Below, in pieces: positions 13,035-13,731 of a stretch of DNA of 64,000 nt. The stretch is from Escherichia phage vB_EcoM-G157lw: sequence record OK331996.1; one strand, given 5' to 3'. Under the pieces are notes generated by a model that saw only the letters and a program-made list of their open reading frames with translations, was not told the DNA's origin and searched no databases. The first letter of the stretch is position 1, and every line of letters starts with the position of its first letter. The position numbers and the translations under genes are program-made.

Positions 13035-13276
13035 TGTCTGAACAAACTATTGAACAAAAACTGTCTGCTGAAATCGTAACTCTGAAATCTCGTATTCTTG
13101 ATACGCAGGACCAAGCGGCTCGTCTGATGGAAGAATCCAAAATTCTGCAAGGAACTTTGGCTGAAATTGCTCGTGCAGTAGGTATCACTGGAGATACTAT
13201 TAAGGTTGAAGAAATCGTTGAAGCTGTCAAGAATCTTACTGCTGAATCTGCAGATGAAGCAAAAGATGAAGAATAA
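13034..13276 (+). CDS. 57A: tail fiber assembly chaperone gp57A
   Basis: 80 aa [23 protein letters not shown]..., coiled coil, synteny. Confidence 0.85.
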
Positions 13277-13731
13277 TGGAATTTAAAGACTTTTCAACGG
13301 GTCTTTATGTAGCAGCTAAGTTTTCAGAATTAACACTTGATGCGCTGGAAGAACTTCAGCGCTCTTTACGTGTTCCTAATCCAGTTCCTAGAGAAAAAAT
13401 TCATTCGACTATATGTTATTCAAGAGTAAATGTTCCGTATGTTCCATCAAGCGGAAGTTTTGAAGTAGCTTCTTCTGGACATTTAGAAGTATGGAAAACA
13501 CAAGATGGATCTACTCTTGTACTTGTACTAGATTCTGAATATCTGCGCTGTCGACACATGTATGCGCGGGCGCTAGGTGCTACACATGATTTTGACGATT
13601 ACACACCGCATATAACATTGTCTTATAATGTTGGGCCCTTATCATTTAGCGGTGATGTACAAATTCCGGTCGTATTAGATCGTGAATACAAAGAACCTCT
13701 TAAGCTTGATTGGGCAGACGATTTAAAATAA
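13276..13731 (+). CDS. 57B: gp57B, 2H-phosphoesterase (Acb1-like anti-CBASS nuclease candidate)
   Basis: 151 aa; two H-x-T motifs (IHSTIC, PHITLSY); position of T4 57B. Confidence 0.75.

Follow-up and report, generated by a model that had tools for sequence, protein, structure and literature searches.

The acb1 (57B) gene of the T4-like coliphage vB_EcoM-G157lw and its predicted role in evading CBASS

What does the short gene between 57A and ipI do in a T4-like coliphage, and does its product act on immune signals or on RNA? The question arises for Escherichia phage vB_EcoM-G157lw (sequence record OK331996.1), of which a stretch of 64,000 nucleotides was analysed (the window). Here we ask whether the gene is a working copy of acb1, what its active site and its setting imply, and what its possession would mean for the phage in hosts armed with signal-based defences.

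Gene call, identity and family membership

The initial annotation had described an open reading frame of 151 codons at 13276–13731, and the listing of open reading frames in the window contains exactly that sequence, beginning with ATG on the plus strand. The gene and its immediate neighbours are as follows.

13276..13731, plus strand: acb1 (gene 57B) coding sequence, 151 codons and a TAA stop, assigned by identity to T4 NP_049750.1, by PF23474 and by PDB entry 7T26
13034..13276, plus strand: gene 57A (tail-fibre chaperone), the upstream neighbour, with 79 of 80 amino acids identical to T4 gp57A (99%)
13809..14093, plus strand: ipI (internal protein I, an anti-GmrS/GmrD inhibitor in T4), the downstream neighbour, 91% identical to T4 IPI

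Alignment of the product to T4 gp57B/Acb1 (NP_049750.1), the check that the initial annotation had proposed, gave 151 identical residues out of 151 (100%). The reading frame contains neither a frameshift nor a premature stop, and with both neighbours confirmed, the suggestion that an intact anti-CBASS gene lies between 57A and ipI was upheld. At the nucleotide level the window and T4 differ at 11 of the 456 positions of the gene, and because the two proteins are identical all 11 differences are synonymous and none is non-synonymous. This silent-only pattern is the one expected under purifying selection, and indicates that selection has acted on the plus-strand frame. Coding on the opposite strand was considered and rejected: only minus-strand frames of 30 and 47 amino acids overlap acb1, and the differences from T4 are silent in the plus frame.

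The protein also falls squarely within its family. With the Pfam Acb1 model (PF23474), whose cutoff is 27 bits, the protein reaches 202.7 bits (E 2.6e-60), its residues 8–149 covering positions 1–144 of a profile of 144, and the best match to a solved structure is to Acb1 of Erwinia phage FBB1 (7T26/7T27; E 4e-62, chain residues 1–142 of 144). At 67.6% identity to 7T26 over 142 columns, any fold other than the compact 2H phosphoesterase fold seems implausible for the window protein. The T4 identity, PF23474 and 7T26 together support the earlier assignment of 57B to the Acb1-type 2H phosphoesterases, and the accompanying statement that T4 57B is Acb1 is borne out by Hobbs et al. (2022; PMC9117128), who made that identification.

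Might the protein nevertheless be a LigT-type RNA-repair enzyme (a 2'-5' RNA ligase or 2',3'-cyclic phosphodiesterase), acting on broken ends of tRNA or other RNA and not on immune signals? Such a function is what the databases would lead one to expect: RefSeq names T4 57B 'RNA ligase', PHROG 755, which matches at 5e-68, carries the same label, the 2H fold and the H-x-T motifs are common to the Acb1 and LigT families, and a tRNA cluster of the phage lies about 1.4 kb from acb1. LigT-type enzymes also use metal-independent chemistry that passes through a 2',3'-cyclic phosphate, like Acb1. LigT substrates, however, are RNA ends, whereas those of Acb1 are cyclic oligonucleotide immune signals, and the name 'RNA ligase' is an inherited superfamily name, not an experimental result. 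On the Pfam 2_5_RNA_ligase2 model, whose cutoff is also 27 bits, the protein scores just 13 bits (E 0.11), compared with 202.7 bits on the Acb1 model, so that membership of the LigT/2'-5' RNA ligase family (PF13563) was rejected as a partial match below the curated threshold. Moreover, cleavage of 3'3'-cGAMP was the activity by which the identical protein of T4 was purified, and the phenotype of its deletion is specific to CBASS. We therefore regard an RNA-repair role as very unlikely.

The labels themselves deserve comment. As in the T4 RefSeq record (NC_000866; locus extract 5953–6411) and PHROG 755, most records still call the gene family 'RNA ligase' or 'hypothetical protein', and among the records listed only that of 236Ecol005PP carries the label 'anti-CBASS protein Acb1'. 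The widespread 'RNA ligase' annotation of acb1 is out of date.

Taken on its sequence, the open reading frame is almost certainly acb1 (T4 gene 57B) of a T4-like coliphage, encoding an intact anti-CBASS nuclease of the 2H-phosphoesterase fold. No observation spoke against this reading. The gene had been characterised before and is intact in this phage, and there is nothing new in the gene itself.

Active-site residues and the chemistry of signal destruction

A regular-expression scan of the 151-residue product found exactly two H-x-[ST] motifs, H43-S-T45 (in IHSTIC) and H112-I-T114 (in PHITLSY). A pair of such motifs on one polypeptide, here at residues 43 and 112, is what places a protein in the 2H phosphoesterase superfamily. 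Both had been picked out in the initial annotation, which put them about 80 residues apart; the motifs stand, but the histidines are separated by 69 residues. How much weight can they bear? About 0.26 H-x-T motifs are expected from composition, and at least two occurred in 2.25% of 100,000 composition-preserving shuffles of the Acb1 protein. Two H-x-T motifs alone are weak evidence. A chance origin is ruled out by homology, in the form of the identity with T4 57B, PF23474 and 7T26.

The motifs and the C-terminal part of the active site map to the window as follows.

13402..13410, plus strand: first catalytic motif, H43-S44-T45 (H44/T46 in T4 numbering), invariant in 37 of 37 aligned relatives
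13609..13617, plus strand: second catalytic motif, H112-I113-T114 (H113/T115 in T4 numbering), invariant in 37 of 37 relatives
13705..13728, plus strand: C-terminal lid, window residues 144–151 (T4/FBB1 residues 145–152), including W146 (T4 W147)

Residue numbers in the window protein are one lower than in the literature because the first methionine of the T4 protein is absent. In Acb1 the catalytic and ligand-contacting residues are H44, T46, H113, T115, Y12, W74, F107, W147 and E141; the H44A substitution abolishes activity of the T4 enzyme, and no catalysis is left in the H44A/H113A double mutant (PMC9117128). Both histidines are kept in the alignment to T4 Acb1, as H43 and H112, and all nine residues (Y11, H43, T45, W73, F106, H112, T114, E140 and W146) are present at the expected positions. 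They include the base-stacking aromatics Y11, W73, F106 and W146 (T4 Y12, W74, F107 and W147) and E140 (T4 E141), which reads adenine N6. When 36 homologues from viral contigs (37–100% identity) were aligned with the window protein, the same nine proved to be conserved in 36–37 of the 37 sequences, W146 and E140 being invariant. The C-terminus is complete and identical to that of T4 through the last lysine; in the FBB1 enzyme the lid formed by residues 145–152 closes over the ligand, with W147 stacking (PMC9117128).

Comparison with other members of the family gives some idea of what may vary. FBB1 Acb1 (7T26, apo; 7T27, with 3'3'-cGAMP) has the same HxT/HxT tetrad and the equivalents of Y12, E141 and W147, but shows two conservative aromatic changes, W73 of the window protein being F and F106 being Y. 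A more divergent Acb1 of 165 amino acids (PDB 9Q2G/9Q2Y) aligns weakly over residues 7–118, including both histidine motifs, and its marginal match (E 0.004–0.03) places it on a distant branch of the family. LigT-type 2H phosphoesterases (PF13563) have the two H-x-T motifs in common with the window protein. Other proteins arrive at the same strategy, removal of the host's cyclic-nucleotide second messenger, among them Apyc1, the poxins, ring nucleases such as Crn4, and the Acb2 sponge; Apyc1, however, is a Zn-dependent enzyme of the MBL type and Acb2 only binds the signal, their folds and chemistry being unrelated to those of Acb1.

What, then, would the window protein do during infection? The intactness of the gene, its identity with that of T4 and its residues were established in this analysis, and the chemistry and the CBASS-evasion phenotype are taken from the literature; the biochemistry of T4 Acb1 transfers to the window protein because the two are identical apart from the extra N-terminal methionine of T4. 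T4 Acb1 was purified from T4-infected cells by tracking an activity that cleaves 3'3'-cGAMP (PMC9117128), and its cleavage of 3'3'-cGAMP and cAAA, together with rescue from CBASS, has been shown experimentally (PMC9117128; HIDEN-SEQ preprint). As a small, metal-independent nuclease of the 2H-phosphoesterase fold, Acb1 would bind the cyclic di- and trinucleotides of CBASS during infection, its predicted substrates being 3'3'-cGAMP, cUA, cAAA, cAAG and others with at least one adenosine in a 3'-5' linkage. The enzyme would strain the ring so that the 2'-OH of the adenosine attacks the adjacent phosphate, the H43/T45/H112/T114 tetrad providing acid–base catalysis of ring opening; the intermediate would be a 2',3'-cyclic phosphate and the final product linear, with a 3'-phosphate end. 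With the signal destroyed, CBASS effectors would stay inactive and abortive infection would be averted.

Start codon, neighbours and expression signals

Gene order and orientation (gene 1, 57A, acb1, ipI) are as in T4, the end of gene 1 (dNMP kinase) adjoining the start of 57A, and acb1 and ipI have been remarked upon as a pair of neighbouring anti-defence genes (PMC9117128). The resemblance to T4 extends from the same 151 residues to the flanking genes, their orientation and a downstream promoter/stem-loop cassette; the differences are an additional N-terminal methionine in the T4 annotation, the 11 synonymous nucleotides, and a host genome that is a different Tequatrovirus. Four short elements need to be considered in relation to expression.

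12258..12283, plus strand: MotA-box middle-promoter-like site (AATGCTTCA, 11 nt, TATAAT), just upstream of gene 1; a pattern match
12671..12678, plus strand: T4 late-promoter-like TATAAATA, inside gene 1 and upstream of 57A and acb1; a pattern match
13274..13278, plus strand: TAATG overlap of the 57A stop and acb1 start, seen in the sequence and a candidate for translational coupling
13745..13781, plus strand: early promoter and stem-loop cassette (PeSL-like), with TTTACA-N17-TATTAT at 13745–13773 and a 9-bp hairpin at 13754–13781

The junction of 57A and acb1 is the one place where the gene departs from T4 in a way that might influence its translation. T4 Acb1 is annotated as 152 amino acids beginning MM, the window product being one methionine shorter. 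In T4 the 57A stop is TGA and the 57B start ATGATG, whereas in the window 57A stops with TAA and the sequence reads ATAATG (T4 GAATGATGG, window GAATAATGG); a single G-to-A change (window 13273–13278) has turned the TGA of 57A into TAA and removed the first of the tandem ATGs of T4. Without it, the start of Acb1, and possibly its level of expression, may differ slightly from those in T4. The 57A–acb1 overlap makes translational coupling probable.

Could the gene then be present but silent, or weakened? The loss of an ATG (ATGATG in T4, ATAATG in the window) is the observation that would favour this. Against it, the second ATG is kept in the form TAATG, which is the commonest stop–start arrangement among 36 related viral-contig loci, including phages that are only 75–88% identical; in a minority of the 36 the ATG further upstream is used and overlaps the stop as ATGA, which may also be the case in T4. 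In addition, proteins of 99% identity or more occur in about 498 phage records (1470 have a recognisable homologue), and the substitutions relative to T4, being all synonymous, indicate continuing purifying selection. A silent or weakened acb1 therefore seems scarcely credible.

The candidate promoters and the stop–start overlaps suggest that gene 1, 57A and acb1 form a middle/late-expressed unit, in agreement with the reported 'predominantly middle/late' expression of T4 57B and with the appearance of T4 Acb1 activity about 15 min into infection (PMC9117128). No early-type promoter of the form TTTACW-N17-TAYWAT, the published T4/PST early consensus (PMC4122927), occurs in positions 1–13744 of the window; the first is at 13745, just downstream of acb1. 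The consensus has 14 matches in the window (13745–60273), all on the plus strand, against 0.39 expected by chance. Its precise form mattered: GTTTACA-N18-TANNAT, in which the spacer is 18 nt, failed to detect the site at 13745 and gave one unrelated match, whereas the published one found it and 13 others.

This early-promoter-like site is embedded in the 9-bp hairpin, within the 77-nt spacer between acb1 and ipI. A consensus scan of the region after acb1 found no intrinsic terminator, and the hairpin at 13754–13781 was rejected as one, having no T-run; it is better described as a PeSL-type promoter/stem-loop. Folding of the 84-nt stretch gave -14.7 kcal/mol (z -2.05), the T4 equivalent giving -20.2 kcal/mol (z -4.5). 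The stem sequence varies across relatives, and differs from that of T4 too, but pairing around the -10 box is preserved. The element at 13745–13781, which ends the putative acb1 unit and precedes ipI, fits the published class of PeSL (promoter-early stem-loop) cassettes, which border plastic regions of T4-like genomes (PMC4122927).

Several comparisons bear on how this part of the genome has evolved. The phage is T4-like, a coliphage of the genus Tequatrovirus, but distinct from T4. Its closest relative around acb1 is Escherichia phage NiC89, with 99.9% identity over 1.4 kb; several Tequatroviruses, CAM-21 and wV7 among them, match the first 25 kb of the window at about 97% identity. Acb1, gp57A and IPI are 100%, 99% and 91% identical to their T4 counterparts, and IPI, an injected protein that counters restriction, is therefore evolving much faster than the other two (ipI shows eight substitutions and a one-residue deletion in 95 aligned positions). 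Gene content downstream of the PeSL-like cassette differs among relatives. One may speculate that the cassette is an active recombination joint, with acb1 as the constant border of an island of anti-defence genes, the cargo of which, from ipI onward, is swapped between T4-like phages, although we consider this unlikely at present.

A little further downstream, the tRNA cluster at 15126–16146 comprises 11 genes (Gln, Leu, Gly, Pro, Ser, Thr, Met, Tyr, Asn, His and Arg), compared with eight in T4. To judge from gene spacing, these are too tightly packed to leave room for a homing-endonuclease reading frame of the size of segB, as found in T4. NiC89 has a 609-bp reading frame between tRNA-Gly and tRNA-Ser, and lacks the tRNAs for Pro and His.

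CBASS evasion and sensitivity to Panoptes

The consequences of carrying acb1 depend on the host. Deletion of acb1 from T4 causes a more than 300-fold loss on CBASS hosts, growth being otherwise normal, and the enzyme stops activation of CBASS effectors in vitro (PMC9117128); likewise, in a transposon screen 57B was dispensable on K-12 and depleted on a CBASS host, being conditionally essential only there (HIDEN-SEQ preprint). There are limits to the protection, as Acb1 can neither accommodate cA4 nor cut the 2'-5' bond of 3'2'-cGAMP (PMC9117128). The phage is accordingly predicted to resist CBASS systems whose signal is a cyclic di- or trinucleotide that contains adenosine and is 3'-5'-linked, and no resistance is predicted against those using cGG, 3'2'-cGAMP or cA4.

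Possession of an active Acb1 is now known to carry a cost as well. Panoptes guard systems are set off by depletion of cA3 or related decoy nucleotides. T-even phages of the BASEL collection with intact acb1 (Bas35–37) are restricted by Panoptes, Bas43, with a nonsense mutation in acb1, escapes it, and escapers from Panoptes selected in Bas35 have single-nucleotide changes in acb1 that are predicted to abolish its function. A disrupted acb1 was also encountered in Escherichia phage BYEP02 (OR757454.1; locus extract 601–1133), in which a 77-bp tandem duplication over the first H-x-T motif introduces an early stop codon, and the annotation shows two coding sequences in place of one gene. The split is either a natural inactivation (compare Bas43 and escape from Panoptes) or an assembly artefact. 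A further possibility, smaller than that of a recombination joint at the PeSL-like cassette, is that the TGA-to-TAA change at the end of 57A may tune the dose of Acb1 between CBASS evasion and the triggering of Panoptes.

Since acb1 is intact in vB_EcoM-G157lw, both CBASS evasion and sensitivity to Panoptes are predicted for this phage. Panoptes sensitivity is the one newer point about an intact acb1, and the two predictions together would be useful for host-range prediction in phage therapy.
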